Assembly: GCA_031279835.1 (NCBI GenBank)
Contig: JAITHV010000051.1
Span: 1-23,272 of the forward strand
Length of the DNA stretch: 23,272 bases
From: Coriobacteriales bacterium
Lineage (GTDB): Bacteria; Actinomycetota; Coriobacteriia; Coriobacteriales; UBA8131
Direction: 5' to 3'
Both the position numbers and the translations under genes were made by a program. The notes beneath the pieces were generated by a model, which worked only from the letters and a program-made list of their open reading frames with translations, did not search any database and had not been told where the DNA came from. Shown piece by piece: positions 4,852 through 22,515 of this stretch (its first letter is position 1; each line of letters begins with the position of its first letter).

Positions 4852-4891
4852 CGACCGCGCGACGAGAGCCAAGCAGCCACCTGTGTCTAAA

Positions 4892-4930: not shown

Positions 4931-4965
4931 CGGTGGTCATACTGGTACTTTGAGGAGGTGATCAG

Positions 4966-5400: not shown

Positions 5401-5416
5401 ATGTGAGGTAATTGTC

Positions 5417-5872
5417 ATGGCAATTAAGGCAATTTGTCGCGGTGCCTTGGGATTCCCGCTCGGCATCTGCATCGGGTACGTCATCACCATAGGCGTGTCA
5501 CTCGCATGGGGCGACGGCACATATCAGCCCTGCGTTTATGCCCTCGTGGAAGAGTTTGGAAGCGAGCTGGCGGCCGTGGTGTTCCAGGCGGCGCTCTGTG
5601 GGGCTCTAGGGGCGACGTTTGCAGCATCGTCAGTAATATGGGAGATGGAGAAGTGGAGCCTGGCCAGGCAGACCGGTGTGCACTTTCTTGTCGCCTCTCT
5701 TGTCATGTTGCCCATCGCGTACTTCGCGCGCTGGATGGAGCGCTCGCTGGGCGGGCTTTTGGTCTACTTCGGCATTTTTATCGCTTTGTTCGCCATCATG
5801 TGGCTTGTCCAGTATTTGATCTGGAGAAACCTGATCAACCGCATCAACCAGCGAGTCGGCATGAGCGAGTAG
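5417..5872 (+). CDS. DUF3021-type integral membrane protein, the usual partner of stand-alone LytTR regulators, 151 aa
   Basis: It has four hydrophobic segments. It is coupled directly downstream of the LytTR gene (17-nt gap, GTGAGG RBS). Confidence 0.65.
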   Translation: MAIKAICRGALGFPLGICIGYVITIGVSLAWGDGTYQPCVYALVEEFGSELAAVVFQAALCGALGATFAASSVIWEMEKWSLARQTGVHFLVASLVMLPIAYFARWMERSLGGLLVYFGIFIALFAIMWLVQYLIWRNLINRINQRVGMSE

Positions 5873-5878
5873 GCCTGC

Positions 5879-6538: not shown

Positions 6539-6731
6539 CAAGCTCCACAATCTGCCGTGGTCGCAGCCCGTTACTGTCATCCCGGCCTTGAGCCGGGATC
6601 TCGACGTTGCTTCTCGACGAGCAGGGCACGCTCAGTGCCTGGCCAGCTTGACCTGTTCACGATATACTGTCCAGCATGCCACAACAGACAAGCGGCGCTA
6701 AGGCGGGTCCATCACAGGCGAGGCGGTGTTG

Positions 6732-9700
6732 ATGTACGTGCAAGATGTCGTCAGAGCGGTTTTCAGGGCTATCCACGAAGGCAAATGGCTCGATGTCGTC
6801 TATTGCAACCGCTTTGGCGAACGGACGCACTTCTGGGCAGAGATCACGGCGGTCGATCCCGCCCAGATGACCTTTAGGGCAAGCGGACTGCACCTATCGA
6901 CGCACTCGCTAACCGAGGGCATGACCCTTCACGCCCACAAGATCGCTGCTGCGACGGTCATCGAGGGCACCTGGTGCACGGTCAACGACGAGCTGGTGGC
7001 AGACATGGCCCGTGACGCGCCGCGCTACGAGCCGCTGTTCGGCCAAGTGGCCAACATGCGGGTCCTCAACTACTATGAAGACTGCCACCGGCTCGATGCC
7101 GACCCATACTGCATGGCATACGAGCTGTTGCGTGGACTTGACGCTGACAGCTTCTCAGACCGGCGCTGTGCGCTCACGAATGAGCAGTTTTCCGGGCTTA
7201 TGGGCGACTTGCTCAGGGAGGTCCCTGGTCGACCGATGCATGAGGGAACTCCCCTGCGACTTAGAAGCCTTGCCATGAACGCGCTAAGTGTCAACACGGA
7301 CAAAGGCCTCTATGTTCTGGCATACCGGCGGCTGCAGCTCGACGTAAAGTCGCGCGAGTTGGTAATGGAAGAGTCGCCCACCATCTGTTGGAAGTTTATT
7401 CTCGAAAAGAACACCGCCGATAAAACCCATAAGCCCGTGCGGCTGGTGCGGGGCATAGACCTGTTCCTCGACCATGACGAGCAGTCATTGTTGCTGGATT
7501 TTAACGCGAACGCCGAGTTAATCAAAGACTGCATCACTGCTGCCTCCCGTCGCCTGTCCTCGAGGTCGCACACCGCTCGGCCACCCGAAATGATAGGGCC
7601 ATACAAAGTGGACGACTTGCCGTATGTCATGGTAGTCGGCAGAGACTCGTCGGTGAACTTGGCACATGAATACTCGGGAATATTACAACAATATAACACT
7701 GCTGTCAGCGCCACGCCGAGCGCCCCAACTCCCGCCGCACAGGGCGCCCCTGCCACCCCGATTCGTGCGTTCTTCGGCGAGTTGCTCAAGCAGCCGCCTG
7801 CCCAGCGGGACCCGCTGCCGCTCGTCGTGCTCGACAACCAGGCGGGACTCGACCAGCTCCGGGCAATCCACAGCGCGCTCAACAACCCACTGACGTATGT
7901 TCAAGGCCCGCCAGGCACCGGCAAGACGAAGACCATCGTGAACACCGTTATCTCAGCATTTTGCAACAACTTGAGCGTCTTGGTCTCGTCGTACAACAAC
8001 CTCCCCGTCAAAAACGTCACCGACGCGCTGCTCAGCCGCGTGTTCCAGTCGCAGCCGATCCACTTTCCCGTGCTGCGGATCGGCAACCCTCACGTCCTCG
8101 CGGAGTCTCTTGACCGGGTTGCAAAAAGCCTCAAGGCGGTGCGACTTGCTGACGCCAGCCCCGCTCCCCAAGGCCCCGCGCCCCTCAGTCCAAGCAGCAT
8201 GCCGCTTGAGCCAAACAGCTCCTTGCTCGAGCTCCTAAGGCGCCACGAAGAGCTTGTCGACCTTCTAGAAAGACGTGATGCCGTCATGCAGATGCTTGAC
8301 TCCATCAGCGACTTCAAGCTCCATATGGACCTTCAGGCCCTACAGCTCAACGACATCAACGCGCGCATAGCAGCCATCGGCGCCATCGAGGACGCAGACG
8401 CAGCGGCCTTTCTCGGCACAAGCTCGGGGCCGCTTGAGGAATACCTCTTCCATGAGTCGCTCAGGCGCTATCGGTTGCTCGACGAGCCACCATTCCAAGA
8501 GTTTGCTGCAATATTCTTGCAGGAGAATAGTAATAATCGCAACCGGGCATTCAACCGTTGGATAAGCGACGACGACAACCTCGCCTTGTCGCTCAAAGTG
8601 TTCCCGGTTGTGGCAAGCACCTGTCTTTCCGCCAGCCGCCTTGCGTCCCCGCGCCCGTGCTTCGACCTTGCGATCATCGACGAGGCAAGCCAATGCAAGG
8701 CTGCCGAGTCGCTCATCCCGGTCGTCCGCGCCCATCGGCTCATGCTCGTCGGCGACCCCCAGCAACTCAGCCCCATCACCCAGCTCAACGAGTCCGACAA
8801 CGCGGCACTGCGCATGAAGTACGCCGTGCCCAAGGAGTACGACTACGCGCGCAACTCGGTTTACCAGGTCTTTCTCGCCTGTGACTCGGTGAGCGACGAG
8901 ATACTGCTCAAAGACCACTACCGCTGTGACGCCGACATCATCGGGTTCAGCAACAAGAAGTATTACGGCGGGCGGCTGGTTGTGAAGACGCCGCCTTCAA
9001 CAGGCACGTCGCTGCACTTCATCGACGTGCGCGATAACGAGACCGTCGGCAAGAACACTGCCCCCGCCGAGGTCAACGCCGTCATCAGCTACGCGCAGAA
9101 AAACCCTCATAAGAACATCGGCGTCATCACTCCTTTCAAGAATCAGCGGCTGCTCCTCGATGCGGCAATAACAAACCATAGGCTGACAAATGTCTCCTGC
9201 GGCACCGTTCATTCCTTTCAAGGGGACGAGAAGGACGTGGTGCTCTTGTCGCTCGCACTCACGCGGCAGACGCACAAGGCGACCTACGAGTGGCTCTGCA
9301 ACAACCGCGAGCTGATTAACGTCGCCACCACCAGGGCCCGTCGCGAGTTGGTGCTCGTCGCAAGCAGGGCCGATATCGAGCGCCTGCATGAGCACCGAAG
9401 CGACGACGACCTGCTTGAGCTCATGCACTACGTGACGCAGCGCGGGAACACCGAGGTCACAAGCCGCACCGCACGATCGCGAGCGCTGGGCATCAAGCCC
9501 TACAGCACAGCAACCGAAGAGGCCTTTCTCACCAGTATCGGTCACGCAATAAGCACCCTCAGCAGCTCAGGAAGGCGCCATTCGGTCAAGCGGGAGGTGC
9601 CCATCTCGCACGTCTTCACCAGCAATTCGGGCACATCCGCCGACGCAGAGACGCACCGCGGCCTGTTCTACAGCGGCAGGTTCGACTTCGTCGTCTACGA

Positions 9701-9911
9701 GCGCCACCCGGGGTCTGCCGAGATGCCCGTGCTGGCATTTGAGCTCGACGGGCGCGAGCACTTCGACGAGGCGACTGTCAAACAACGGGATGAGGAGAAA
9801 AACGCCCTCTGCCGTGCCTATGGGCTTAAGCTTGTCCGCGTCGACAACACCTATGCCCGCCGTTACGCGTACCTCAAAGACCTGCTGCTTGCATGGCTTG
9901 ACGTCTCATAG
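6732..9911 (+). CDS. Large orphan protein: unknown ~380-aa N-terminal domain + SF1B Upf1-like helicase (AAA_11/AAA_12) + C-terminal DUF2726/PD-(D/E)xK-like endonuclease-fold domain, ~1060 aa
   Basis: Helicase motifs: Walker A VQGPPGTGKTKT; motif II IIDEASQC; motif III LVGDPQQLSPI; motif IV YRCDADII; motif V HSFQGDEKDVVLLSL; motif VI INVATTRARRELVLV. The C-terminus GRFDFVVYERHPGSAEMPVLAFELDGREHFDEATVKQRDEEKNALCRAYGLKLVRV matches the DUF2726 pattern (rvDFvl...iElDG..H...RD...G..lvRv). I prefer the ATG at 6732, which has GAGG 9 nt upstream; GTG 6726 is an alternative. Confidence 0.8.
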   Translation: MYVQDVVRAVFRAIHEGKWLDVVYCNRFGERTHFWAEITAVDPAQMTFRASGLHLSTHSLTEGMTLHAHKIAAATVIEGTWCTVNDELVADMARDAPRYEPLFGQVANMRVLNYYEDCHRLDADPYCMAYELLRGLDADSFSDRRCALTNEQFSGLMGDLLREVPGRPMHEGTPLRLRSLAMNALSVNTDKGLYVLAYRRLQLDVKSRELVMEESPTICWKFILEKNTADKTHKPVRLVRGIDLFLDHDEQSLLLDFNANAELIKDCITAASRRLSSRSHTARPPEMIGPYKVDDLPYVMVVGRDSSVNLAHEYSGILQQYNTAVSATPSAPTPAAQGAPATPIRAFFGELLKQPPAQRDPLPLVVLDNQAGLDQLRAIHSALNNPLTYVQGPPGTGKTKTIVNTVISAFCNNLSVLVSSYNNLPVKNVTDALLSRVFQSQPIHFPVLRIGNPHVLAESLDRVAKSLKAVRLADASPAPQGPAPLSPSSMPLEPNSSLLELLRRHEELVDLLERRDAVMQMLDSISDFKLHMDLQALQLNDINARIAAIGAIEDADAAAFLGTSSGPLEEYLFHESLRRYRLLDEPPFQEFAAIFLQENSNNRNRAFNRWISDDDNLALSLKVFPVVASTCLSASRLASPRPCFDLAIIDEASQCKAAESLIPVVRAHRLMLVGDPQQLSPITQLNESDNAALRMKYAVPKEYDYARNSVYQVFLACDSVSDEILLKDHYRCDADIIGFSNKKYYGGRLVVKTPPSTGTSLHFIDVRDNETVGKNTAPAEVNAVISYAQKNPHKNIGVITPFKNQRLLLDAAITNHRLTNVSCGTVHSFQGDEKDVVLLSLALTRQTHKATYEWLCNNRELINVATTRARRELVLVASRADIERLHEHRSDDDLLELMHYVTQRGNTEVTSRTARSRALGIKPYSTATEEAFLTSIGHAISTLSSSGRRHSVKREVPISHVFTSNSGTSADAETHRGLFYSGRFDFVVYERHPGSAEMPVLAFELDGREHFDEATVKQRDEEKNALCRAYGLKLVRVDNTYARRYAYLKDLLLAWLDVS

Positions 9912-9946
9912 GCGGCGCGTCAACCGGTCCTGCTTTGGGATCTTTG

Positions 9947-10729
9947 TCACTGTGGGCCGTTGACCCGCACCAGGTCAGCGACGCTGACCGTCGCGTTACG
10001 GTAGCGCTCGCTGTTCTTCTCGCCTTTCACATGGATGGCGCGCGACGGGCAGGTGTGCGCACAAGAAAGACACGCGGCACAGGAGCTGCCAAAGTAGGGC
10101 CGTCCCTCGTGGCGCACTATGTTGCGCATGGGGCAGACAAGCTCGCATGTGCCGCACTCGTTGCAGCGACCGTCCACCGTGAGGTGCCGTTCAAAACCGC
10201 TGAGTTGCCGCGTTGCGACTCGCCACATGACTCCACGAAGGGGCGCTAGCCCGGCCGTCTTTCCGACGTTTTGCGTGCTTGCCTCAACTTCCGAGGCAAC
10301 AAGGGCGACGTCAGCGGCAAGCTTAGCCTCGGTGAAACGCTGGCGCTGCCGGGCCATGTCAAAAAGGGGCAGGTAATTGTCCGGCATGGTCAAGGTCGCG
10401 AAGTAGGAGAGACAAAAACCACCCTTTCGCGCAAAGTATAGCATTTGGGCCTTGACGGCAAGAGACAGGTTGCCGCGTGTGCTGATAACGAAGACATACG
10501 GGCTTTTTAGGCGCGTTCTCGCAAAGAACTCGGCGATGAGCGGCGGGGTAGTGAACCAATAGGTCGGGAACACGATTCCTATCTTGCTGTCGCTGACCTC
10601 GATCTCTCTGAAGCCTTTCGCGGAGTTCTCTCGTAAGAAGACCGGGATAGACACCAGCTCCCCGCCAGTACCGACCGCCCGTGCCACCTGCAGGCAGTTT
10701 CCCGTCCCCGTAAAATAGAAAGTCCTCAT
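9947..10729 (-). CDS. EFR1-type flavodoxin-like domain fused to 2x[4Fe-4S] ferredoxin domain protein, ~260 aa
   Basis: The N-terminus MRTFYFTGTGNCLQVA is a flavodoxin-like start. The C-terminus carries two CxxCxxCxxxCP motifs (CNECGTCELVCP and CAACLSCAHTCP). I prefer the internal ATG at 10729 with an AAGGG RBS. Confidence 0.7.
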   Translation of the reverse strand: MRTFYFTGTGNCLQVARAVGTGGELVSIPVFLRENSAKGFREIEVSDSKIGIVFPTYWFTTPPLIAEFFARTRLKSPYVFVISTRGNLSLAVKAQMLYFARKGGFCLSYFATLTMPDNYLPLFDMARQRQRFTEAKLAADVALVASEVEASTQNVGKTAGLAPLRGVMWRVATRQLSGFERHLTVDGRCNECGTCELVCPMRNIVRHEGRPYFGSSCAACLSCAHTCPSRAIHVKGEKNSERYRNATVSVADLVRVNGPQ

Positions 10730-10990
10730 AAAACACCCTTTCTGCGCGGCAAGAACCTCACCGTGGGCAGGCAGCAGACCTGCTAAAGGCAATGATAGTC
10801 TAGCCACCCAAGAGGCACAAGTGCAGGCTGTCGCAGGGTGTGGCCAGCCACATTCTGCAGTAGAGGCACCCAGGCGCGCAGCACAGTAATTAGCGTAAGA
10901 AAGTTCTAAAACAGTGCGGTAATTTGCAAGATTCTTCCCTAGGATTGCCTTAAAGTTAGCATCAAGAGGCTAGCGGTATGGGCGAAGCAG

Positions 10991-11096: not shown

Positions 11097-11900
11097 ATGA
11101 TTATCATCGGTGAAAAAATCAACGGCTTTATCCCCAAGACGTTGGCGGCAATCGAGGCTCGCGATGATGCGTACATCATCGAGATCACCAAGGGCCAGGC
11201 TGCAGGCGGCGCGACCTACATCGACATCTGTGCCGGCACGGCGCCTGATGTTGAGCGCGAGACCATGGAGTGGCTCATCGACCTCGTGCAGAGCAACACC
11301 GACACCCCTATTTCTCTGGACAGCTCTGACCCGCAGGTCATCATCGACATGATGCCCCGCGTCAAGAAGCCCGGTCTTATCAACTCGATCTCTCTTGAGG
11401 CCGGCAAGTGCGAGACGGTTCTTCCTGCCATCGCCAACACCGACTGGAAAGTCGTTGCGCTGACTTGCGACAGCAACGGTATTCCCGATGACCCCAAAGT
11501 GAAGTTCGATATCGCCAAGAAGATCATCGAGCAGGCCAATGAGCTCGGGATCAAGAACGACCGGCTCTTTATCGACCCACTGGTCACCACGCTTGCCACC
11601 AAGCAGGACTCCCTGATCAGCTTCAACGAGGCGATCCGCCTCATCAAGGCCGCGTATCCTGATGTGAACATCACCTCGGGACTCTCGAACATATCCTTTG
11701 GCATGCCGTTCCGCAAGGCGATCAACATGCAGTTCCTCGCCCTGACGATGGCTGCCGGCATGAACAGCGCTATCATGGACCCGATGTCGCAGGACATGCA
11801 GGCGACGATGCATGCGGTCAACGCCCTGCTGGGCAACGACGAGTACTGCGTCGAGTATCTCGGTGCCTTCCGCGAGGGACTGTTCGGCGCCACAAAATAA
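11097..11900 (+). CDS. Pterin-binding methyltransferase of the AcsE/MtrH family (methyl-corrinoid:tetrahydrofolate methyltransferase, MT-II), 267 aa
   Basis: [11 protein letters not shown]...GLSNISFG...[20 protein letters not shown]...[15 protein letters not shown] aligns closely with the AcsE pattern (IIGERING..., GLSNVS..., LINRTFLAMAMA.GLD.AI.D, LLN...YC). An AAGGAG RBS sits 6 nt upstream of the ATG. Confidence 0.85.
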
Positions 11901-11910
11901 ACGACCTCTT

Positions 11911-11952
11911 GACCGGCACACGCTTGAAGCGTGTGCCGGTCATTCTTATTGT
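11911..11952 (+). terminator. Strong intrinsic terminator (13-bp perfect stem GACCGGCACACGC/GCGTGTGCCGGTC, 5-nt loop, T-rich tail ATTCTTATTGT)
   Basis: Read directly, 11 nt after the AcsE-like stop codon. It lies inside the track ORF 11909..12544, so the folE start must be downstream of it. Confidence 0.75.
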
Positions 11953-11974
11953 CAACAGACGACCGGGGCGGGCA

Positions 11975-12544
11975 ATGAATCGCGAGAAGATTGAACAGGG
12001 TGTACGACTCATTCTTGAAGGCGTTGGCGAGGATCCTTCTCGTGAAGGGCTGCTCGACACGCCATCACGTGTCGCCTCTATGTACGAAGAGGTCTTGGCG
12101 GGCATGGAGCAAGATCCTGCGCCGCTGTTCAGCAAGAGCTTTGACGAAGGTCATGGCGAGCTGGTTTTGGTCAAAGACATCCCGCTCTACTCGATTTGCG
12201 AGCACCATATGGTGCCGTTCCTTGGAGTGGCGCACGTAGGGTATATCCCTGGTAAAGACGGTCGCGTGTGCGGCCTTTCAAAGATCATCCGCCTGGTTGA
12301 GGTGTACTCGAGGCGCCTGCAAGTACAAGAGCGCCTGACTTCTCAGATCGCTGAGACCTTAGTTAACGAGCTTGCCCCGAGGGGCGTCATAGTGGTCATT
12401 GAAGCCGAGCACCTCTGCATTTCGATGCGAGGCGTTCGCAAGCCTGGCACAAAAACGGTCACTTCTGCCGTTAGGGGGGTTTTCGGCGCCTCTGAGCGCT
12501 CGCGTGCAGAGGCACTCTCGTTGGTCTATGGTAAAAGCAAATAA
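11975..12544 (+). CDS. folE: GTP cyclohydrolase I (FolE), ~189 aa
   Basis: Motifs [33 protein letters not shown] and [10 protein letters not shown] are diagnostic of type I GTP cyclohydrolase. The start is placed after the terminator hairpin at the first in-frame ATG (MNREKIEQG...). Confidence 0.88.
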
Positions 12545-12692: not shown

Positions 12693-13943
12693 GTGAGGTT
12701 CGACACGCTCAACGACTATTCTCTGATTACTGGTATGGGAATCAGGGTGGTGGACGCTGATGGAGCTGAGCTTTTTGCCACGTCCCAGTTCGAGATTGTC
12801 CGCAAGGCGCTGAGCTATCTCGACGGGGTTTTCGGCTCACAAGAGAGCAGTCTTGAAGTCGAGGCAAGAAGCCGTGACCTTGCGCTCGTCATGGGTGGAG
12901 GCTTTTACGTCTACTTGTGTCCACGTGGCCTCATGTTTGGGATTGTGCCGTTCGCACGCAGCGGCAGGTGTCAGCGCTTCGTCATAGGCGGTCCGCTTAT
13001 ACTGTCGAATATTTATGACTATGTAGATTTTGAGATCATTCCACAGGCAGCCTCTGGCATTGACCGATACGAGGCATTGCGTTGGGTATCATGTATTCCT
13101 GTCAAAGACCCCCGAATAGCCTCAGCGGTGTTTGAGCACCTTTTTGTGAGTACGGCGTTTATCAACGGCACGAACACGCAGCTTGTCTCGCTTCTCGACG
13201 GCGAGGACATTTACAGTGACGATGACCCGTATGACAAGGCGGCAGGCATCGAGAAGCTGAGGTTTGAGACCCACTTGTACGACAACGAGAGCGAGGTCGT
13301 TGCGCAAAAGACCTTGCTTGAGACGCTTTGGGTCTCTGAAGACATACAGATCCGCTCGCTTTTTAATGAGATAAAGGGCCAGATACTCTTCCATCCCCGC
13401 AACAACCTCGACCTGCTCAAGGCCAAGTCGATGGACCTTATCTCTGTGCTCGCAGAATCAGCTATGCATAACGGGGCAGAGACGAAGATCCTCCTTCAGA
13501 TGCGCAACCGCGCCTTATTGGAGATCGACGAGCTTGAAAGCCTTGACGAGATCGTCGTGTGGCTCAATAAAATATACGAGTTGTTCACCTCGCATGTCTT
13601 CAACAATCCCAACTCACGCTACACTGAGGCAATCCGGAAGTCCCTCGCGTTTATGATGGACCATTATCAAGACAAGATCACGCTCAACGACGTTGCGGCA
13701 CACGTCTCGTTCTCTCCGACGTACCTGTCTAGCCTGTTCAAAAACGAGGTCGGCCAGACCTTTAAGAGTTGTCTCAACCGCATACGCATCGAGCAAAGCA
13801 AGCTGCTTATATCCGACTGGAACCTCACGATAGCCGAGGTCAGCTGTCAGGTCGGGTTCACTGACCAGAGTTATTTTGCCAAGGTCTTCAAGCAGTATGA
13901 AGGCGTGACACCGTATTTATACCGTCTCACCTGCAAGCAATGA
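12693..13943 (+). CDS. AraC/XylS-family transcriptional regulator with a ~300-aa N-terminal sensor region, 416 aa, GTG start
   Basis: The C-terminal dual HTH LNDVAAHVSFSPTYLSSLFKNEVGQTFKSCLNRIRIEQSKLL...IAEVSCQVGFTDQSYFAKVFKQYEGVTPYLYR is the AraC signature. An AGGAGG RBS sits 11 nt upstream of the GTG. Confidence 0.8.
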   Translation: MRFDTLNDYSLITGMGIRVVDADGAELFATSQFEIVRKALSYLDGVFGSQESSLEVEARSRDLALVMGGGFYVYLCPRGLMFGIVPFARSGRCQRFVIGGPLILSNIYDYVDFEIIPQAASGIDRYEALRWVSCIPVKDPRIASAVFEHLFVSTAFINGTNTQLVSLLDGEDIYSDDDPYDKAAGIEKLRFETHLYDNESEVVAQKTLLETLWVSEDIQIRSLFNEIKGQILFHPRNNLDLLKAKSMDLISVLAESAMHNGAETKILLQMRNRALLEIDELESLDEIVVWLNKIYELFTSHVFNNPNSRYTEAIRKSLAFMMDHYQDKITLNDVAAHVSFSPTYLSSLFKNEVGQTFKSCLNRIRIEQSKLLISDWNLTIAEVSCQVGFTDQSYFAKVFKQYEGVTPYLYRLTCKQ

Positions 13944-14096
13944 CGCCTCCTCTTTCGTAGCATAGCCGCATTGATTTGCAGCTCTTTTTACCAATTCACC
14001 CTGAATAAGTACAAGAAATGCCGCATCGGCTTGACGTACAATCAGCGTAATGCTTGGGCGCATGATGTCGTTTCAATACAAAGGAGATGGCAAACT

Positions 14097-15488
14097 ATGG
14101 TAAAGAAGAGCTTTACAGAAACTGCTTACAAGAATGTAGACGATTTTGTTTATGGTAAGTCAATCTACCCCGTCACGACCAAGCGTGGTCTTGTGGTCGG
14201 CGGCGGCACCCTGTATCCCGAGGTCAACTTCACCCTCCCCACCATGCTCATTACCGATGAGACCATGCCCGAGGTCCTGAGCATCTACAAGGAGATCATC
14301 ACCGGTATAGCCCAGCGTGCCGTCGAGCTTGAGGTCGAAGGCTTCTCCGCTGAGTGCGAGTGGCTGCCCGGCATGACGTTCGAGCCCGAGCGCGGCATCC
14401 AGGTCATGCGCATCCTCGAGGATGTTGTTGAGGAGTACTATCAGAAGTATGGCATCAAGGGTGCCGTACGCTCCACGCCTGTTGACATCCGTGAAGGCAA
14501 GGGTGTCGATCACATGTGGCATGGCGCCGCGTGGGACAAAGTAGTCAGGTCCTTCGAGGGCAGCGCCGAAATCGGCAACGACTTCCTGTCAATCGAGTCC
14601 ATCGGTGGCAAGGACGTCCACGACGAAGGGCTCATGTACTGCGATATCGAGAAGGTCATCTTCGGTGTTGGCGTTCTCGGCGCAAAGGACATGGAAGTGC
14701 TGTGGGAAATGATCGCCAAGGTCGCCGGCAAGTATCCTGGCGTTACCGCCGCTGGCGACACTGCATGCGGTTTTGCGAACACCGCCATGGTTCTTGCTGA
14801 GCAGGGCTACATCCCGCGTGTTCTTGGCGCGACTGCCCGCGTAATCGCTGCGGTGCGCACGATGGTTGCCAACGAGCAGGGCGCAACCGGTCCCGACAAG
14901 GACTGCGGCTATGAAGGTGTCATCATCAAGGCCATCACGGGTATGCCTGTCACGATGGAAGGCCGCATGGCTGCCGTCGCACACCTCTCGCGGGTGGGCA
15001 ACATCGCTCTGTGCTGCGCCGACCTCTGGAGCAACGAGTCCATTCAGCACATCAAGCTCCTCGGTGGCTATGCTGAGGTTGTTTCGGTCGAGCAGCTCGC
15101 TTATGACTGCCGCCTGCTGAATTGTGCGCGTGAGCGTGACGAGAAGACTGCGTTGCTTATGCGTGACCTGCTTGCAAACAGCGACAGCTGGCGTGACCCG
15201 CACGCATACATTCTGCGTCCGGATGTCGCTCTCAAGATCGCGACTGCTATCGTCTCTGAGAAGGACGATCACTATCTGCGTTCGGTCAAGGCTGCCGCGA
15301 CTGCTCTTGCAGTCATCCGCGAGGGCTATGATAAAAAAGAGCTCAAGCTTGAAGACCGCGAGCTCAGCTACCTTGACTCTCTCTCTGAGACTGTTGCTGC
15401 AATGCCGAAAGACGAGGGTTCCTTCATTGAGCAGCAGGTCGCTGCCAACACGAATCCGAAGTTCGATCCCAAGATGTACGACCTGTAG
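14097..15488 (+). CDS. MtaB-family substrate:corrinoid methyltransferase (MT-I; methanol:corrinoid methyltransferase-like), ~463 aa
   Basis: The N-terminus MVKKSFTETAYKNVDDFVYGKSIYPVTTKRGLVVGGGTLYPEVNFTLP resembles the MtaB N-terminus (…YTSMAY…FG.S.YPV…G…IPEINF…). Its size and its position next to the corrinoid protein and activator fit. An AAAGGAG RBS sits 10 nt upstream of the ATG at 14097; the track ORF starts earlier at 13971. Confidence 0.7.
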   Translation: MVKKSFTETAYKNVDDFVYGKSIYPVTTKRGLVVGGGTLYPEVNFTLPTMLITDETMPEVLSIYKEIITGIAQRAVELEVEGFSAECEWLPGMTFEPERGIQVMRILEDVVEEYYQKYGIKGAVRSTPVDIREGKGVDHMWHGAAWDKVVRSFEGSAEIGNDFLSIESIGGKDVHDEGLMYCDIEKVIFGVGVLGAKDMEVLWEMIAKVAGKYPGVTAAGDTACGFANTAMVLAEQGYIPRVLGATARVIAAVRTMVANEQGATGPDKDCGYEGVIIKAITGMPVTMEGRMAAVAHLSRVGNIALCCADLWSNESIQHIKLLGGYAEVVSVEQLAYDCRLLNCARERDEKTALLMRDLLANSDSWRDPHAYILRPDVALKIATAIVSEKDDHYLRSVKAAATALAVIREGYDKKELKLEDRELSYLDSLSETVAAMPKDEGSFIEQQVAANTNPKFDPKMYDL

Positions 15489-15892: not shown

Positions 15893-16534
15893 ATGGTCGT
15901 GAGTATTTTTGATGAGATTTCCGAACTAGTGCAAAAAGGTAAGGTAAAGGATATCGCCGGCGCGGTAAAGGGTGCGCTCGACGGGGGCGCCTCTGCACAG
16001 CAGATCCTCGACGATGGCCTGTTGGCCGGTATGGCGATCCTTGGTGAGAAGTTCAAGAACAACGAAGTGTTCGTTCCTGAGGTTCTTCTTGCCGCCAAGG
16101 CCCTTAACGAAGGCACTGCGCTCTTGAAGGAGAAGCTGGTCGCCGAGGATGTCAAGCCTCTCGGCAAGGTCGTTATCGGTACGGTTGAGGGCGACCTGCA
16201 CGATATCGGCAAGAACCTGGTCAAGCTGATGATGGAGGGTATCGGCTTTGAGGTATTTGACCTGGGCGCCGATGTGTCTGCTGATGAGATTGTTGCTGCT
16301 GTTAAGGAGAACAACGCAGACATCGTTGCTCTCTCTGCCCTTTTGACCACCACGATGGGTCAGCAGGGTGTTGTCGTCAAGGCGCTTGAGGCTGCCGGTC
16401 TGCGCGATCAGGTCAAGGTTATGGTCGGTGGCGCGCCCATCACGGAGAAGTTCTGCAAGGACATCGGTGCAGACTGCTACACGGTCGACGCTGCTGCTGC
16501 AGCTGAGGCGGCAAAGTCGTTGGTCGGAGCGTAG
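15893..16534 (+). CDS. Cobalamin-binding corrinoid protein (MtaC/MtbC-like; B12-binding-2 helical cap + Rossmann B12-binding domain), 213 aa
   Basis: The DxHxxG B12 motif GDLHDIGKN is present, followed by the canonical VALSALLTTTM and MVGGAPIT segments. A GAGGAG RBS sits 5 nt upstream of the ATG. Confidence 0.88.
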   Translation: MVVSIFDEISELVQKGKVKDIAGAVKGALDGGASAQQILDDGLLAGMAILGEKFKNNEVFVPEVLLAAKALNEGTALLKEKLVAEDVKPLGKVVIGTVEGDLHDIGKNLVKLMMEGIGFEVFDLGADVSADEIVAAVKENNADIVALSALLTTTMGQQGVVVKALEAAGLRDQVKVMVGGAPITEKFCKDIGADCYTVDAAAAAEAAKSLVGA

Positions 16535-16575: not shown

Positions 16576-16614
16576 GATGCAGCTCCAAATCTAGAATTGG
16601 TTTGGAGCTGCATC
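16576..16614 (+). other. U-less perfect 14-bp hairpin (GATGCAGCTCCAAA / TTTGGAGCTGCATC, 11-nt loop) between the corrinoid-protein gene and the activator gene
   Basis: Read directly, 42 nt after the corrinoid-protein stop. The track ORF start at 16597 (TTG) lies inside the hairpin arm and is rejected. Confidence 0.55.
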
Positions 16615-16632
16615 GTTCAGAAAGGCGGCAAC

Positions 16633-18561
16633 ATGCCTAGTGACGTCACTGTCGCATTCACCATGACGGGCAGCAAGGAGGTGAAGAGCACTGTTCCTGT
16701 CGGCTCTTCACTGCTTGATATAGCCAAAGACCTCGGTATTCCTCTCGACGCGCCTTGTTCCGGAAACATGACCTGCGGAAAATGCAAGGTAAAAGTCATT
16801 TCGGGGAAAACCGAAGGGAAGCGTACCCGCTATGTTTCTGAAGAGGCATATGAGCAGGGGTGGCGTCTGGCATGTGCAGTTGATGTGTCAGCCGATCTGG
16901 TTGTTGAAGTTCCTGATTCAGCATCGGCATATCGGACGGGCATTAAGGTCGACGAACTAGGCGATACTGCTCGCGGCATGTCGTTCGCAAAATTGAAGAC
17001 AGATCTTCTTGAACGAGGGTTTAGCGTGGGCGGCACCGTGATCACAACCGTATTGGAACTTGTTGCGCCAACGAACGATGACCCTGAAGCAGACAAAGAG
17101 CGCTTGGTGCGCGCCCTCGCAAAGGCTCGGGGTGTCAATGAGCGCGATGTGAGGCTGAGCCTTGGCGCTATGCGAGCGCTGCCGCATGCGATACGAGAGT
17201 CGGAGTACCGACCGTTTCTGGTTATTGAGCAGACTGACAATGGCGGTCTGCTCGTCATTGACATCTGTGCGCAGCCTCAACAGCCCCTGGGACTGGCTAT
17301 AGACATTGGAACCACAACGGTTTCGGCATTGCTCTCGGATCTCGATACCGGCGATGTGCTCGCAGCTGGCACGGCGGGAAATGGGCAGATTCGATTTGGT
17401 GCTGATGTCATCAACCGTTTGGTTGAGTCGGACCGTCCTGGTGGACTTGTGCGCTTAAGAAAGGCAATCGTTGATGAGTGCATCGCGCCTTTGGTCAAGT
17501 CGCTATGCGATGCTATTTCCAAAGACGGTGAGTCAATTTACCGGGTAACCGTAGCGGGCAATACGACTATGGCACACCTGTTCATCGGTGTATATGGCAA
17601 TTATTTACGGTTGGACCCGTATATTCCTGCCTTTTTTGAGCTAGATGGGCTGCGAGGTGCGGACCTTGCTATTGGCGTCAACCCCGCTGCCGCTACGATC
17701 ATAGCCCCTGCTGTCGGAAGCTATGTGGGCGGCGACATCACTGCGGGCATATTGGCGTCAGGAATCGCCAAAGGCGACGAGTGGTCTATGCTTATCGACC
17801 TCGGCACGAACGGCGAGATTGTCCTAGGCAGTTCTGAATTCCTCATGGCATGTGCCTGCAGTGCCGGCCCAGCATTTGAAGGCGGCGACATCAGCTGCGG
17901 CATGCGCGCGACTGACGGCGCTATTGAGGCGATCACTATTGACGAGCAGACTATGGAGCCTAAGTGTCTTGTCATTGGAGCTGATGGGCAGCGACCGATA
18001 GGTGTTTGTGGCTCAGGAATCATTGACGCAATCAGCGAGCTTTTCCGCACGGGCATCATCGATGCGCGCGGACGTTTTTTGCGCGAGGGTCCTCGAGTGC
18101 ATGTTGATGAATGGGGAACTACCTCATATACTTTGGCATGGGGCGAGGAGACCGATAGCGGCGAGAAGATTGCTTTGACCGATTCGGACATAGACAACTT
18201 CATCCGCGCAAAAGGATCGGTGTTCTCTGCTATTCGCACCCTGCTGGATGTAGCTGGTTTTTCAATAGATGACATCAGCCATATCAATATTGCAGGCGGG
18301 ATCGGAAACGCCATTGACATCGAACATGCGATTGGAGCTGGCATGCTTCCCTGTCTTCCGCTTGACAGGTACTCATATGTGGGCAACACTTCTTTGGCGG
18401 GCGCGTATTCACTTCTTGTCTCACCAGAGACCAGAAGTGAGCTCTCGGCCTTGACTAGGAGCATAACCTACATCGAACTAAGCACGATAGCAGGCTATAT
18501 GGACGAGTTTATTGCTGCATGCTTTATTCCGCATACCGATGGATCATTGTTTAGTCTATAA
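16633..18561 (+). CDS. RACE-type reductive activator of corrinoid enzymes (N-terminal plant-type [2Fe-2S] ferredoxin + DUF4445/ASKHA ATPase domain, COG3894), ~642 aa
   Basis: The N-terminal Cys pattern CSGNMTCGKCKV...LAC is plant-type 2Fe-2S. The size and the Gly-rich ASKHA-like segments (LAIDIGTTT, LIDLGTNGE, GVCGSGIID) fit. I prefer the ATG at 16633 (MPSDVTVAF). Confidence 0.8.
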   Translation: MPSDVTVAFTMTGSKEVKSTVPVGSSLLDIAKDLGIPLDAPCSGNMTCGKCKVKVISGKTEGKRTRYVSEEAYEQGWRLACAVDVSADLVVEVPDSASAYRTGIKVDELGDTARGMSFAKLKTDLLERGFSVGGTVITTVLELVAPTNDDPEADKERLVRALAKARGVNERDVRLSLGAMRALPHAIRESEYRPFLVIEQTDNGGLLVIDICAQPQQPLGLAIDIGTTTVSALLSDLDTGDVLAAGTAGNGQIRFGADVINRLVESDRPGGLVRLRKAIVDECIAPLVKSLCDAISKDGESIYRVTVAGNTTMAHLFIGVYGNYLRLDPYIPAFFELDGLRGADLAIGVNPAAATIIAPAVGSYVGGDITAGILASGIAKGDEWSMLIDLGTNGEIVLGSSEFLMACACSAGPAFEGGDISCGMRATDGAIEAITIDEQTMEPKCLVIGADGQRPIGVCGSGIIDAISELFRTGIIDARGRFLREGPRVHVDEWGTTSYTLAWGEETDSGEKIALTDSDIDNFIRAKGSVFSAIRTLLDVAGFSIDDISHINIAGGIGNAIDIEHAIGAGMLPCLPLDRYSYVGNTSLAGAYSLLVSPETRSELSALTRSITYIELSTIAGYMDEFIAACFIPHTDGSLFSL

Positions 18562-18655
18562 GGTCTCTCATGTTCCCTCGACGTGCACTGGCGTGGCGCT
18601 TGGCACAAGTCCGTGCAAAGCCACAGCGCAAAGAGTCATAGGATAGGAAGAAGCA

Positions 18656-19312
18656 ATGTCACAGGCACAAATCGGTTTATCAACCAACAACCTTACGCAA
18701 CGCCCACTCGACCATTATGGGAGCTGCTACCGCAAGCTTGATCCAGAGGAAGTGGCGGCGCGTACGGGATTGCAGTTTAATCGGGAAGGCTCTTCGTTCG
18801 GACTGGTTCTCATGGGCTCGCCATGCCACGCTGCTTATCCGGACTACTCGCTCAGTGATGAGTCCGGAGAGCCAGTTGCCTCGGCCTACGAGTCGATACT
18901 TATACTGCGGTTTCTCTGTGAGGGGCGCTTTGTTTCTGCCACAGGAACTGAGCTGACATACAAAGAACTTCCCTGGGGCATCACTTATGACACAAATTTC
19001 GAGCATCGCGTCAAGCGGCGTCTTCTGCGCGAGTTTGCAAAAGACCTTGCGTTGTTCGCGCAGCTCATGGAGACAAACAAGGGGTTAAAGGCACAGCCGC
19101 TCGAAAAATGCGACTGTGGGTATCGTTTTGAGTTCATGGGTGGGCTTCCAGTCAGCATTAGGTTTTGGGCGGCAGATGAGGAGTTTCCCGCATCGGTCCA
19201 GGTTCTTTTTGATGAGAGCTTCCAGTTTGCCTTTTCTGCAGAAGACGTTGCTGTTGTAGGTGACACAATCATAAACAGACTGATAGGCATGCGTGCCCAA
19301 GCTTTACCGTGA
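18656..19312 (+). CDS. DUF3786-family protein (uncharacterised protein associated with corrinoid methyltransferase operons), 218 aa
   Basis: A 218-aa soluble protein with Cys residues (CYRKL, CHAAY, CDCGYRFEF). I place it in DUF3786 from memory of that family's size and context. It lies between the activator and the regulator. Confidence 0.55.
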   Translation: MSQAQIGLSTNNLTQRPLDHYGSCYRKLDPEEVAARTGLQFNREGSSFGLVLMGSPCHAAYPDYSLSDESGEPVASAYESILILRFLCEGRFVSATGTELTYKELPWGITYDTNFEHRVKRRLLREFAKDLALFAQLMETNKGLKAQPLEKCDCGYRFEFMGGLPVSIRFWAADEEFPASVQVLFDESFQFAFSAEDVAVVGDTIINRLIGMRAQALP

Positions 19313-19339: not shown

Positions 19340-20860
19340 ATGAAGATTAGCGCAGAGATGCTTGCTGAAGGATTAAGTAAGTCGTTTACTATCAACGTCG
19401 TTGGACCGTTGAGCATGCTTCCGACCATTGGGAGTCTCTTGCTTGTTGGCCCCGACACAGTTTGGCAGGACGGAAAAACCTACTTGGTCGAAAGCCCTGG
19501 AGTAGACCAAGTACCAGCGACGCATATCGATTCGGTGGTTCTCATCGTGGGCGCATTTCCTGAGGTCTTGCCAGGGCGGTTTCAGTCTGCCTTGATTTTT
19601 GATGAAGAGACAACTCTCTTCGAGGTACATAACCGCATCCAAGACATTTTCGCCGAATACAATATGTGGGAGGCTGAGATCCACCGCATGCTCAGCGGCG
19701 GCTCTGATGTCCAGTCCATGCTCGACATCAGCGCCGGTCATTTTGGCAACCCGCTCATACTGTTCGACAGTAACTACAAAGTGATAGCCAGCTCAAAAGG
19801 ATACAGCGCCGATGAGCGCATGGCACCGGTCTTTGACTGCCTGCGTCTGCCTTTTTTGATGCGATCAAATCAAGATGACGCCTATCGGGGCGGTCATCGA
19901 GGCAGTAACCAGGCAGGTCATGCCAGAGCATTGTATATCAACGACATGCGTGCTTATTCTGTCAGTTATATGCAACAAGCCTTTACCTATCAGCTCGTAT
20001 TGGTCGAACTCGATAAGGGGCTGAGTGCCTCTGATGTTTTTCTGCTTGAGCACCTTGCTGAGTTTGTCTACCTTGCCATCGGCTTTGTCCCAGGCTATAT
20101 TCAGGCTGAATCAGGGCTTCAGAGCACACTCAAGCTTTGTGTCAGCGGTGAGTTGACAAGCACGACTTCTATCACAAAGCGGCTTGCGCGCTATGGATGG
20201 CTTCCAACCCACCAATACGTGTGCCTGAAGTTTGCTTTCGAGATACATGAGCAGCGAAACCGCACATTACGCTTCAAAGAGGAACGTTTCACCGAGACCC
20301 TCGGAGAGCACAGTGTGTTTGAGCACGGCGATAGCATTGTTGCGTTCGTTAACCTCGACCTTCATGACGGTGGCGACAATGGGTTCGAAGGTATTCTCAT
20401 GAGCTACCTGCAGGACAACCTCGCCAAAGCGGGGATGAGCAATCGCTTTACCGGATTTGAGGACTTGGACCTGTATTACAGGCAGGCTGAATTGGCGTTG
20501 TCATACGGGCAGCGACTCAACCCCTATCTAGACCTGTTCCGTTTTGCGGGGATAGTCAAGCCGCATCTTCTGGCATGCTGCACGAACAAGCTTCCTGCCC
20601 ATATGGTATGCTCGCCCGGACTAATCGCACTCCAGCGCCATGACGCTGAACACGGTACATGCCTCTATCGCACACTTCAAGTGTTTATTAAATGCCGCTT
20701 CAGTTATGCTAACTCAGCAAAAGAGCTTTTTATACATCGCAGCACGTTCATGCATCGACTCCAAAGGATAAAAAAAGTCAGCGGCATTGATGTTATGAAC
20801 ACCGACGAGCTCTGGCATATACTTCTTTCCTTCGAGCTGCTCGAATACGAGCTTCCTTGA
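19340..20860 (+). CDS. PucR/CdaR-family transcriptional regulator (C-terminal PucR HTH), 506 aa
   Basis: The C-terminus LYRTLQVFIKCRFSYANSAKELFIHRSTFMHRLQRIKKVSGIDVMNTDE is a PucR-type HTH (HTH_30). The N-terminal ~350 aa is a putative ligand-binding region. Confidence 0.75.
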   Translation: MKISAEMLAEGLSKSFTINVVGPLSMLPTIGSLLLVGPDTVWQDGKTYLVESPGVDQVPATHIDSVVLIVGAFPEVLPGRFQSALIFDEETTLFEVHNRIQDIFAEYNMWEAEIHRMLSGGSDVQSMLDISAGHFGNPLILFDSNYKVIASSKGYSADERMAPVFDCLRLPFLMRSNQDDAYRGGHRGSNQAGHARALYINDMRAYSVSYMQQAFTYQLVLVELDKGLSASDVFLLEHLAEFVYLAIGFVPGYIQAESGLQSTLKLCVSGELTSTTSITKRLARYGWLPTHQYVCLKFAFEIHEQRNRTLRFKEERFTETLGEHSVFEHGDSIVAFVNLDLHDGGDNGFEGILMSYLQDNLAKAGMSNRFTGFEDLDLYYRQAELALSYGQRLNPYLDLFRFAGIVKPHLLACCTNKLPAHMVCSPGLIALQRHDAEHGTCLYRTLQVFIKCRFSYANSAKELFIHRSTFMHRLQRIKKVSGIDVMNTDELWHILLSFELLEYELP

Positions 20861-20889: not shown

Positions 20890-21081
20890 CTAAGCGGTTT
20901 TTATCACTAGGCTGTTTTTGATGAAATCGACCCGCTTGATTTTACCAATGACTTCAGTCTTCTCCCCAAGCAGGTCATAGAGGACGACACTGTCGCCCTC
21001 TATGCTCACCGAAGTGACATTCTTGGTTATCAGGGCATCTTGCTTGCCGTCGACAGTCACATAAGCGCTCGAGAGGCACAT
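20890..21081 (-). CDS. cooT: CooT-family small nickel-binding CODH accessory protein, 63 aa
   Basis: The 63-aa size and the N-terminal Met-Cys (Cys2 is the Ni ligand in CooT) fit. The C-terminal RVDFIKNSLVIK resembles R. rubrum CooT RVDLRSGVISLIE. An AAGGAGG RBS is embedded in the upstream gene and the gap is 3 nt. Confidence 0.65.
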   Translation of the reverse strand: MCLSSAYVTVDGKQDALITKNVTSVSIEGDSVVLYDLLGEKTEVIGKIKRVDFIKNSLVIKTA

Positions 21082-21084: not shown

Positions 21085-21408
21085 TTATCCCTCCTTTGCA
21101 GACTTAAGGGCTGCCGCAAGGAGCTCGTTTCCTGCGTTGAAACGCTCTGCCCCCTCGCGGATAAGACGTGCTGTCTCGGTCAGTCCAGCATGCTCCAAGT
21201 CATGGGCCACATCGTACAATTCGCTGGTATGCTGCGCATTGTGGTCGACCATATAGCCAAGGAGAGCGATGGCGCTTTGTGGCTGAGTGCCACCATGCAA
21301 GTGCGCATGGGTATGGCTTATGCCATCACCATGGCTATGCTCATGAGAATGAATATGACCCTCATGGGCTGTGGCGTCATGAGCGCTGTTATCGAGGTTA
21401 TCGTGCAT
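21085..21408 (-). CDS. Histidine-rich putative nickel metallochaperone (CooJ-like function; 16 His in 107 aa, 12 in the first 38 residues) with a helical C-terminal domain
   Basis: The translation begins MHDNLDNSAHDATAHEGHIHSHEHSHGDGISHTHAHLHGG... and is followed by a helical C-terminal region. It is directly coupled to cooT and divergent from cooC-cooS. I prefer the ATG at 21408 over the TTG at 21426. Confidence 0.6.
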   Translation of the reverse strand: MHDNLDNSAHDATAHEGHIHSHEHSHGDGISHTHAHLHGGTQPQSAIALLGYMVDHNAQHTSELYDVAHDLEHAGLTETARLIREGAERFNAGNELLAAALKSAKEG

Positions 21409-21565
21409 AATTATCCTGCCTTTCAAGGAAAATGAGCAAAACTAACACTCGATTGCCGACGGCGTGCCAACCATTTTCAAGACCGCCGTACAGGCAATCG
21501 TCTACATAGAGTTTATTATCCCTTAGCGTCGCTGTTTCTGTCTAGCTGCGTCTATTAAGATAGGG

Positions 21566-21582: not shown

Positions 21583-21668
21583 AGCATGTATGAGAACATC
21601 CATAATTTGGTCGTATTGAGCAGAAGAAATCAAGCCTATAGGATAAATAGTGACGATATTTCATTTCT

Positions 21669-21709
21669 CATTGTCTGGGCAGGTCATATCCAAGTCAGTG
21701 TCTGGGCAA
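21669..21709. promoter_or_regulatory. Direct repeat CA(T/G)TGTCTGGGCA x2 spaced 27 bp, 40-75 bp upstream of the preferred cooC GTG start
   Basis: Read directly (cattgtctgggcagg ... cagtgtctgggcaac). The surrounding 160 bp is AT-richer than coding DNA. Confidence 0.3.
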
Positions 21710-21744
21710 CCGAAAGTATTGAAATTCTATTCCGGGAGGCGTTT

Positions 21745-22515
21745 GTGGCGTACACTATTGCCATAGCGGGAAAGGGCGGCACAGGGAAAACTACCCTTGC
21801 TGGACTTCTGGTCGACTATCTAGTCAAGCAAAAAGCTACACCCATCCTCGTTGTAGATGCCGACGCCAACTCTAACCTCAATGAGGTGCTGGGCGTCAAA
21901 GTAGACATGACATTAGGGGACCTACGCGAGACGATAGTCGGCTCAGAGTTTCAGGACGTCAATCCGATACCTGCTAGCATGTCCAAGCAAGATTACGTGT
22001 CTGCGCATTTCAGCAGGACTCTCATTGAAGAAAGCGGCTACGACCTGATAGTCATGGGGCGCACACAGGGCAAGGGCTGCTATTGTTTTGTCAATGACCT
22101 GCTCACTAATCAGATAAACCGCTACGCTGGCAGCTATCGCTACCTTGTGGTGGACAACGAGGCGGGAATGGAGCACATCAGCCGAGGGACTCTGCCATCA
22201 GTTGACTTGGTCTTACTCGTCTCTGACAGCTCTCGGCGGGGCATTCAGGCTGCAGCTCGCATAAAGGACCTCGTCAACGAACTTGCCCTTGCGCCTCGTG
22301 CTATGAAGCTCATCGTAAACAGGGCACCTGGCGACGAACTCGATCCTGGCACCGTTGAAGAGATCGAGGCGCATGATTTTGATGTCGCTGGCATCGTGCC
22401 CAATGACTCGCTTATTTACGAATACGACTGTCAAGGCAGACCGACAGTGCAGCTCCCCGAAGACTCAAAAGCGCGGATTGCTTTTGAGTCTATTATGTCG
22501 GGCATTATTACGTGA
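21745..22515 (+). CDS. cooC: CooC/AcsF-type nickel-insertion ATPase (MinD/ParA superfamily) for CODH maturation, ~256 aa, GTG start
   Basis: A deviant Walker A IAIAGKGGTGKTT is present. The CxC nickel-binding motif of CooC appears as GKGCYCF. A GGGAGG RBS sits 5 nt before the GTG at 21745. The track ATG at 21586 would add a 53-aa AT-rich extension absent from CooC proteins. Confidence 0.8.
   Translation: MAYTIAIAGKGGTGKTTLAGLLVDYLVKQKATPILVVDADANSNLNEVLGVKVDMTLGDLRETIVGSEFQDVNPIPASMSKQDYVSAHFSRTLIEESGYDLIVMGRTQGKGCYCFVNDLLTNQINRYAGSYRYLVVDNEAGMEHISRGTLPSVDLVLLVSDSSRRGIQAAARIKDLVNELALAPRAMKLIVNRAPGDELDPGTVEEIEAHDFDVAGIVPNDSLIYEYDCQGRPTVQLPEDSKARIAFESIMSGIIT

Follow-up and report, generated by a model that had tools for sequence, protein, structure and literature searches.

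Corrinoid proteins have a central place in acetogenesis, in methylotrophy on methanol, methylamines and methoxylated aromatics, and in gas-fermentation biotechnology. Oxidation inactivates them, and they depend on activators of the RACo type. RACo, also named AcsV, is an ATP-dependent reductive activator that returns oxidised Co(II) corrinoid proteins to the active Co(I) state. How the cell supplies and controls activators of this type has yet to be settled. Here, we analysed a gene of the family DUF3786 (PF12654, IPR024264) that follows a RACo gene in a 23,272-nucleotide stretch of DNA from a Coriobacteriales bacterium of the Actinomycetota (GenBank assembly GCA_031279835.1, contig JAITHV010000051.1), the whole of which is hereafter referred to as the window. 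The gene order seen in related species suggests that the DUF3786 proteins of this subfamily are functional partners of RACo with a non-redox, accessory role, a reading to which we assign a probability of about one half.

Activators of the RACE type have been described as two-component systems, in which ATP and an artificial reductant suffice for the reduction of the corrinoid protein in vitro (PMC6739815, PMC7317905), and their physiological electron donor is named only as 'e.g., ferredoxin or flavodoxin' (PMC6739815). In cluster III of Acetobacterium woodii (A. woodii), a hypothetical gene of 647 nt, 'orf1', is located 16 nt after acsV (PMC3315566, PMC6925170). It was still listed as hypothetical in 2023, with transcript counts of 1356 and 2178 in two conditions, in which acsV had 4126 and 7952, acsD 16,808 and 36,479, and acsC 28,276 and 63,571 (PMC10472528). 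In the C1-fixing cluster of Clostridium autoethanogenum (C. autoethanogenum), deletion of hp (CAETHG_1604), whose product is His-rich, and of nbp (CAETHG_1605), which encodes CooT, caused growth defects (PMC10230548). Our search of the literature on DUF3786 found nothing relevant. The window protein is an ordinary member of a catalogued, uncharacterised family, and the tight coupling of its subfamily to RACo appears not to have been discussed previously in the searchable literature.

The DUF3786 gene and its RACo neighbour

The gene, its presumed ribosome-binding site and its two adjoining genes are the following.

18656..19312, + strand: DUF3786 (PF12654) gene, identified by an open reading frame with an ATG start, a Pfam match, an identical database protein, an AlphaFold2 model and its composition.
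18640..18653, + strand: Shine-Dalgarno-like, purine-rich stretch AGGAUAGGAAGAAG, read from the sequence, which ends 2 nt before the ATG of the DUF3786 gene.
16597..18561, + strand: RACo/AcsV, ATP-dependent reductive activator of corrinoid proteins, with the Pfam domains Fer2 ([2Fe-2S]), RACo_linker, Raco_middle and RACo_C_ter (ASKHA).
19340..20860, + strand: PucR-family regulator with the Pfam domains GGDEF_2 and HTH_30; the order RACo-DUF3786-PucR is also found in the closest relatives (L168 and L169).

The DUF3786 open reading frame is a real gene, and its product is a true member of the family. A preliminary description had reported a soluble protein of 218 residues, encoded by a gene with a ribosome-binding site that starts 94 nt past the activator stop, and all of this was found exactly as reported, RACo ending at 18561 and DUF3786 beginning at 18656. 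The protein has a mass of 24.4 kDa and is acidic (pI 4.98), and the maximum of its Kyte-Doolittle profile over 19-residue windows is 0.98, as in a soluble protein. Its match to PF12654 scores 151.4 bits (cutoff 27; E = 2.4e-44) and spans profile positions 1-176 of 176 with residues 29-208, which by profile statistics is far beyond chance. The identical database entry is named 'DUF3786 domain-containing protein [Coriobacteriales bacterium]', and no NCBIfam name was found for the protein. The RACo gene product is full-length (804 bits to NF040756) and it matches the crystallised RACo of Carboxydothermus hydrogenoformans (C. hydrogenoformans; PDB 3ZYY, E = 1.6e-126) as well as 4C1N, the complex of RACo with the corrinoid iron-sulphur protein (CoFeSP). 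The PucR gene starts 27 nt after the DUF3786 stop. No terminator-like site was found between the RACo, DUF3786 and PucR genes in the window, and the 94-nt spacer between RACo and DUF3786 shows no unusual folding (z = 0.11), neither a regulatory RNA nor a terminator being found there. This lack of a terminator-like site, and the frequent overlap of the genes in relatives, indicate that DUF3786 is probably co-transcribed with RACo.

A profile of the close homologues gave 499 confirmed relatives in a collection of one genome per species, of which the best 80 were taken with flanks of 10 kb. About 18 of these loci belong to Spirochaetota (mostly termite-gut Treponema) and about 60 to Bacillota (Family XIII, Lachnospiraceae/Blautia, Oscillospiraceae and Christensenellaceae). 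The neighbourhoods were probed with the window proteins by tblastn, and a close locus was taken as assessable when it had at least 2 kb of upstream sequence (n = 74). Of the 80 loci, 69 have a RACo homologue (440-680 bits) on the DUF3786 strand with its end less than 800 nt before DUF3786, and in 67 it is the immediately preceding gene. Among the assessable loci, 66 of 74 have RACo as the direct upstream neighbour in the same orientation. The RACo alignment ends a median of 63 nt before the DUF3786 alignment begins. The genes around the pair are variable. The second gene upstream of DUF3786 encodes an AcsE-type pterin-binding methyltransferase (19 loci), the acetyl-CoA synthase AcsB (12) or one of many other proteins, and the gene that follows encodes a folate-family S component of an energy-coupling factor (ECF) transporter (22 of 74), PucR (5), FchA (4) or others. 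Because the pair stays constant while its flanks change, across three phyla including Actinomycetota, the two genes are likely to be functionally coupled. As far as gene order can tell, RACo and DUF3786 are a conserved two-gene module, in which the pair itself is conserved and is sited either at the head of acs operons or within substrate-methyltransferase clusters. MtaB, the methanol:corrinoid methyltransferase of the window, was detected by tblastn in none of the 80 close loci; an MtaC-like gene was detected in four loci or, at another score cutoff, in five. The absence of MtaB from these loci indicates that it is the activator, and not the methanol set, to which DUF3786 is linked.

In the cultured acetogen Treponema primitia (T. 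primitia), the RACo and DUF3786 genes overlap by 14 nt and they head the operon acsA-cooC-acsB-acsD-acsC-acsE-DUF8180-CooT. A metagenome relative (L168), the DUF3786 protein of which is 52% identical to that of the window, has the order GCH1-PocR/AraC-RACo-DUF3786-PucR-CooT(-)-DUF8180(-), which is followed by a full acs operon. In a second relative (L169, 66% identical protein), the order DUF3786-PucR-CooT(-)-DUF8180(-) is in common with the window. From these arrangements, the window is a variant of the L168/L169 block, with mtaB-mtaC inserted ahead of RACo. The L168 contig carries further related genes. A second, very divergent DUF3786 paralogue (1-622, - strand), whose identity with the window protein is 22% over the C-terminal half and which lacks the AED motif, adjoins an mtaC-mtaB pair (870-2926), and a shorter RACo of 504 amino acids, which has no linker domain, is located beside a DUF2284 gene. 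In the Lachnospiraceae-type acs clusters, the ECF S component that comes after DUF3786 is TIGR04518 (FolT family; for example L042:10907-11479), so that a RACo-DUF3786-FolT trio recurs there.

The close loci represent a small part of the family. An exhaustive HMMER search retrieved 2,426 clusters at 50% identity with E <= 1e-3, and just 116 with E <= 1e-30. Distant members were sampled twice, in seven Pfam-annotated contexts (Thermincola, Desulfofundulus, Phosphitispora, Metallumcola, a Thermodesulfobacteriota metagenome-assembled genome (MAG) and others) and in 80 metagenome loci found with a tighter distant alignment. None of the 50 assessable distant loci has RACo directly upstream, compared with the 66 of 74 close ones (Fisher's exact p = 1.3e-26); RACo is linked in none of the seven Pfam-annotated contexts, and a RACo-like match anywhere in the flanks was seen in 2 of 87 distant loci. 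The linkage to RACE/DUF4445 genes that the preliminary description had envisaged for DUF3786 thus applies to the subfamily of the window and breaks down in the distant one, and a family-wide linkage was rejected on these counts.

In the distant loci, the preceding gene encodes a methylenetetrahydrofolate reductase (MTHFR, MetF) in 14 of 70 cases and an AcsE-type Pterin_bind protein in 6. Of 69 following genes, 12 encode a NuoE-like [2Fe-2S] protein, 7 encode PurE and 4 a CooC-like ATPase. The order AcsB...AcsE-MetF-DUF3786, often with the NuoE-like gene next, recurs in sediment metagenomes (L101, L112 at 4427-10612, L122, L124, L126, L142 and L143). This recurrent AcsE-MetF-DUF3786-NuoE-like order suggests that the distant subfamily belongs to a methylenetetrahydrofolate reductase or electron-input module. 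Other distant members are found in unrelated neighbourhoods, next to an MGDG-synthase-like glycosyltransferase, FtsW, NUDIX or PurE. Among loci of at least 5 kb, 17 of 50 in the distant set and 45 of 75 in the close set contain a Wood-Ljungdahl marker. Judged by its neighbourhoods, the family as a whole leans to Wood-Ljungdahl and C1 operons, with the coupling to RACo limited to the subfamily of the window. A nickel-pincer (LarB/LarC) theme, raised by a LarC gene upstream in one locus (L026) and by 'AIRC' neighbours, was dropped, as the AIRC genes are PurE (1e-60) and not LarB.

Two rare fusions were also seen, each as a single sequence of unverified assembly. P0192 (763 amino acids) combines a LacI helix-turn-helix (HTH), a periplasmic-binding-like domain and two tandem DUF3786 domains, and P0140 (320 amino acids) combines DUF3786 with ACT. 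The fusion partners are small-molecule-sensing modules, which would be a hint of ligand sensing by DUF3786, and the tandem copy in P0192 hints that DUF3786 may act as a dimer.

Conserved residues, predicted structure and alternative roles

The motifs W-x-x-D-[DE]-E-F-P, [IV]-L-F-D and [AT]-E-D-x-A occupy invariant or near-invariant columns in both the close and the distant alignments and are family-wide. The window protein carries them as WAADEEFPASVQVLFD and SAEDVAV. Another group of residues, consisting of D-x-G-Y-R-F-E-F, R85, W107, N114 and R122, marks the RACo-linked subfamily. Within 119 sequences, these residues, all of which are found in the window protein, are invariant or reach at least 90% conservation, and the distant alignments do not have them. 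The 119 sequences have 15 invariant and 30 near-invariant positions, and the conserved positions of DUF3786 are Arg, Tyr, Phe, Trp, Asp and Glu. The AlphaFold2 model made from the 119-sequence alignment has a predicted local distance difference test score (pLDDT) of 94.7 and a predicted template modelling score (pTM) of 0.90. It comprises two alpha/beta lobes, and residues 1-8 alone are disordered. An internal duplication of the two alpha/beta halves was considered and is unsupported at the sequence level (hhalign probability 0.2). A Foldseek search of the model against the PDB gave nothing below E = 0.1, and sequence and profile searches of PDB chains gave no matches. The modelled fold hints at no enzyme, redox cofactor site or B12-binding domain, and it would be compatible with a protein- or ligand-binding role.

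The preliminary description had proposed that four Cys form a metal or Fe-S site, through which the protein could donate electrons to the activator. The protein has in fact five Cys, including a CxC at 152-154, and its gene adjoins that of a [2Fe-2S] protein. However, among 119 close homologues, C24 is conserved in 3%, C57 in 5%, C152 in 8% and C154 in 8%, C88 alone reaching 82%. The subfamily has three semi-conserved Cys columns, at window positions 37, 88 and 119, each occupied by Cys in 81-86% of the sequences. All three Cys are present in 77 of the 119 homologues (65%), those at 37 and 119 in 15, at 88 and 119 in 10, at 88 only in 6, at 37 and 88 in 4, and none in 7. The replacements are T or S at position 37, I, T, N, D or A at 88, and V or S at 119, and the window protein has T37, C88 and V119. 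Since these Cys are lost independently in every combination, the columns behave as buried residues and not as obligate ligands. In the distant members, the median number of Cys per protein is 0.5, and their alignments show no column of conserved Cys. Neither a conserved His cluster nor a conserved Cys/His ligand set was found in DUF3786, and the structure search of the model gave no match to ferredoxin, flavodoxin, rubredoxin, thioredoxin or B12-binding structures. The Cys-ligated site was therefore rejected on its conservation pattern, and the electron-donor role, which depends on that site, is not supported either; for the window protein we consider it effectively refuted. The protein has no match to a B12-binding Pfam domain, and its His20, His58 and His117 do not stand in a D-x-H-x-x-G context. 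Corrinoid binding of a non-canonical kind is possible.

Three other explanations were weighed. DUF3786 could be an accessory that serves the methyl branch of the Wood-Ljungdahl pathway in general, binding folate or methyltetrahydrofolate (methyl-THF) or associated with MetF and AcsE, with the adjacency to RACo being historical. The MetF, AcsE-type and NuoE-like neighbours of the distant members and their recurrent gene order speak for this, as do the folate-family ECF S component that follows DUF3786 in 22 of 74 close loci, the occurrence of FchA, Fhs and FolC, and a GTP cyclohydrolase I or FolE2 gene near DUF3786 in the window and in L168, L086, L087 and L092. Nevertheless, Wood-Ljungdahl operons are rich in folate enzymes, so these associations may be bystander effects. 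RACo is the sole pathway probe detected in the flank in 19 of 69 RACo-linked loci, the RACo-DUF3786 junction is far tighter and more constant than any folate-gene adjacency, and no resemblance to a known pterin-binding fold was found; we regard this explanation as unlikely. That DUF3786 is a small-molecule-sensing or regulatory module, which signals to PucR or modulates the expression of the corrinoid system without acting on the activator, seems to us improbable. PucR is directly downstream in the window, in L168 (with a 4-nt overlap), in L169 and in five Family XIII loci, the two fusions carry sensing domains, and the fold is weakly like regulatory or binding modules (KA1, AMPK C-terminal domain). 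On the other hand, PucR follows in 5 of 74 genome loci, whereas RACo precedes in 67 of 80, the fusions are single and unverified sequences, and no regulator adjoins in acs operons such as that of T. primitia. Comparably small odds attach to DUF3786 being a conserved hitchhiker with no corrinoid or C1 role. Several distant members stand in unrelated neighbourhoods, but a near-contiguous, same-strand pair in 66 of 74 species across phyla, with varying flanks, is not what a hitchhiker would be expected to give, and neither is the strong conservation of residues described above.

Proposed role of DUF3786 beside RACo

Partnership with RACo is the reading that we prefer, and the mechanism that follows is a proposal. 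DUF3786 would be inherited with RACo as a two-gene module that serves whichever corrinoid protein is local. In the window, these clients would be MtaC, which is the likely substrate of the RACo encoded there, and probably also a CoFeSP encoded nearby, given the CooT, DUF8180-like and CooC-like genes at the window end. Because DUF3786 has no conserved Cys/His ligand set and no known cofactor fold, we propose that it acts by binding, through a conserved acidic and aromatic face composed of the family-wide motif and the D-x-G-Y-R-F-E-F strand. It could serve to dock RACo with its physiological reductant or with the corrinoid protein that is the client of RACo, or it could aid release or loading. 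An adaptor or chaperone role in the activator-client cycle, of the sort that the preliminary description had also named, is thereby suggested, and we are much less confident in any specific step than in the partnership. A stronger form of the proposal, which we consider doubtful, is that DUF3786 would be the missing in vivo third component of RACE-type corrinoid reactivation, as a non-redox, RACo-binding protein. In such a role it might couple the [2Fe-2S] domain of RACo to the physiological reductant, work on the ASKHA ATPase as a release factor or a nucleotide-exchange-like factor, or deliver or load the client. This role, if true, would explain why RACo and DUF3786 have been kept together from termite-gut spirochaetes to gut Lachnospiraceae and Coriobacteriales.

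Several points weigh against the partnership. The case for it is drawn wholly from gene order, and the conserved face is deduced from the sequence and its secondary structure. Similarity to the query was the criterion by which the 80 close loci were chosen, and so they sample one subfamily. Eight of the 74 assessable loci have no RACo upstream, and the best genome hit (L001, a Gracilibacteraceae MAG, 52% identity) has DUF1638 there instead (L001:663-1412, + strand). DUF1638 is an uncharacterised family that is associated with corrinoid methyltransferase clusters. Other subfamilies lack the RACo link, and the ancestral role of the family may therefore be elsewhere in C1 or folate metabolism. 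Furthermore, since RACE systems run in vitro with ATP and an artificial reductant, DUF3786 is not needed for the core activation chemistry.

Kept beside RACo in about 90% of related species, DUF3786 is a concrete and cheaply testable candidate for a missing factor, and it could be approached directly as a candidate accessory of corrinoid reactivation. Cultured acetogens possess it, namely T. primitia and several Blautia and Lachnospiraceae, with A. woodii orf1 as a probable further case. Should DUF3786 improve reactivation, it would be a protein to co-express when methyltransferase or carbon monoxide dehydrogenase/acetyl-CoA synthase (CODH/ACS) systems are moved to other hosts. Should it do nothing, a widely conserved 'hypothetical' of Wood-Ljungdahl clusters would need another explanation.

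The surrounding gene cluster and comparison with known systems

The + strand order around DUF3786 in the window is MeTr, GTP cyclohydrolase I, PocR/AraC, MtaB, MtaC, RACo, DUF3786 and PucR. Past PucR there are CooT(-), a His-rich DUF8180-like gene(-) and a CooC-like ATPase gene. The cluster therefore exceeds the five genes implied when the preliminary description asked whether DUF3786 is a 'fifth component'. In addition to the features given above, it comprises the following.

11097..11900, + strand: pterin-binding methyl-THF:corrinoid methyltransferase, AcsE/MeTr-like, by Pfam and PRK07535 (328 bits).
11909..12544, + strand: GTP cyclohydrolase I (GCH1), the first step of folate biosynthesis, by Pfam; a counterpart is found in the L168 block.
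12693..13943, + strand: regulator with a PocR sensory domain and an AraC HTH, by Pfam; a counterpart precedes RACo in L168.
13971..15488, + strand: MtaB-family methanol:corrinoid methyltransferase (PF12176, 542 bits).
15893..16534, + strand: MtaC-type corrinoid protein (B12-binding_2 and B12-binding), by domain searches.
20890..21081, - strand: CooT, nickel-binding CODH accessory protein of 63 amino acids that starts MC... (PF10133, 64.6 bits).
21085..21426, - strand: His-rich DUF8180-like protein of 113 amino acids, 43% identical (E = 7e-19) to L168:12363-12683, which adjoins CooT there; Pfam assigns DUF8180 in relatives.
21586..22515, + strand: CooC-like, MinD-type P-loop ATPase (CbiA, AAA_31; 29% identity to the CooC-like protein of L086), the true start of which is probably downstream of the first ATG.

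The segment 11097-16534 (+) is a bacterial-type methanol methyltransferase set, which is made of MtaB, MtaC and a pterin-binding MeTr that replaces the MtaA-type MT2. A GTP cyclohydrolase I gene and a PocR/AraC regulator are embedded in this set in a Coriobacteriales (Actinomycetota) MAG. At the junction of MeTr and GTP cyclohydrolase I, a perfect 15-bp GC-rich hairpin with a T-rich tail (11910-11942, +) overlaps the TTG 'start' of the open reading frame at 11909. The hairpin could serve as a terminator or attenuator past MeTr, and GCH1 probably starts in reality further downstream than this TTG. At the other end of the cluster, the layout of the CooT, DUF8180-like and CooC-like genes matches that of L168 and L169, in which a full acs (CODH/ACS) operon follows. 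On account of this match, the Coriobacteriales organism may encode the carbonyl branch of the Wood-Ljungdahl pathway just past the window end.

Two genes upstream of the cluster were also noted. An EFR1-family ferredoxin gene (9947-10807, - strand) is divergent and located just upstream; its product, which matches NF038196 with 161 bits and has a 4Fe-4S dicluster motif, is a candidate for the physiological electron source of the activator. The segment 6726-9911 (+), upstream of the C1 cluster, encodes a 1061-residue superfamily-1 helicase (AAA_11/AAA_12) with a C-terminal DUF2726; it may be defence- or mobile-element-associated and appears unrelated to the DUF3786 finding.

When compared with PF12654 at large, the window protein carries the full-length, high-scoring domain and the family-wide motifs. 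Its small and tight subfamily differs in having its own GYRFEF strand, an Arg85 that replaces the His of the LHYL motif, and the coupling to RACo. The MetF/AcsE-linked subfamily, found in Wood-Ljungdahl operons of sediment and subsurface, is alike in fold family, core motifs and C1-operon setting, whereas its identity to the window protein is about 30% (29.9% for the L083 member) and RACo does not adjoin its members (0 of 50).

The gene hp of C. autoethanogenum is likewise a small uncharacterised gene attached to a C1 cluster, but it encodes a different protein. An identity of DUF3786 with hp was rejected, as hp is His-rich and corresponds to the DUF8180-like gene beside CooT, while DUF3786 has three His. 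The counterparts of the hp/nbp pair in the window are the His-rich gene at 21085-21426 (-) and CooT at 20890-21081 (-). Orf1 of A. woodii (Awo_c10690) resembles the window gene in its position after acsV and in its size (about 215 amino acids), and differs in belonging to an acs operon and not to a methanol cluster. By size and position (sequence unverified), orf1 is probably a DUF3786 gene, and its transcript level, which is nearer to that of acsV than to those of acsC and acsD, fits an accessory factor. The size and position of the A. woodii 'orf2' would fit a FolT-family ECF S component (unverified).

In comparison with RACo and CoFeSP of C. hydrogenoformans, and with the O-demethylase activating enzyme and its corrinoid protein, the window cluster is alike in encoding a bona fide RACo homologue, a corrinoid protein and methyltransferases. 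These two-component RACE/RACo systems have been described without a third protein, whereas here, and in 66 of 74 related species, a DUF3786 gene follows the gene of the activator.

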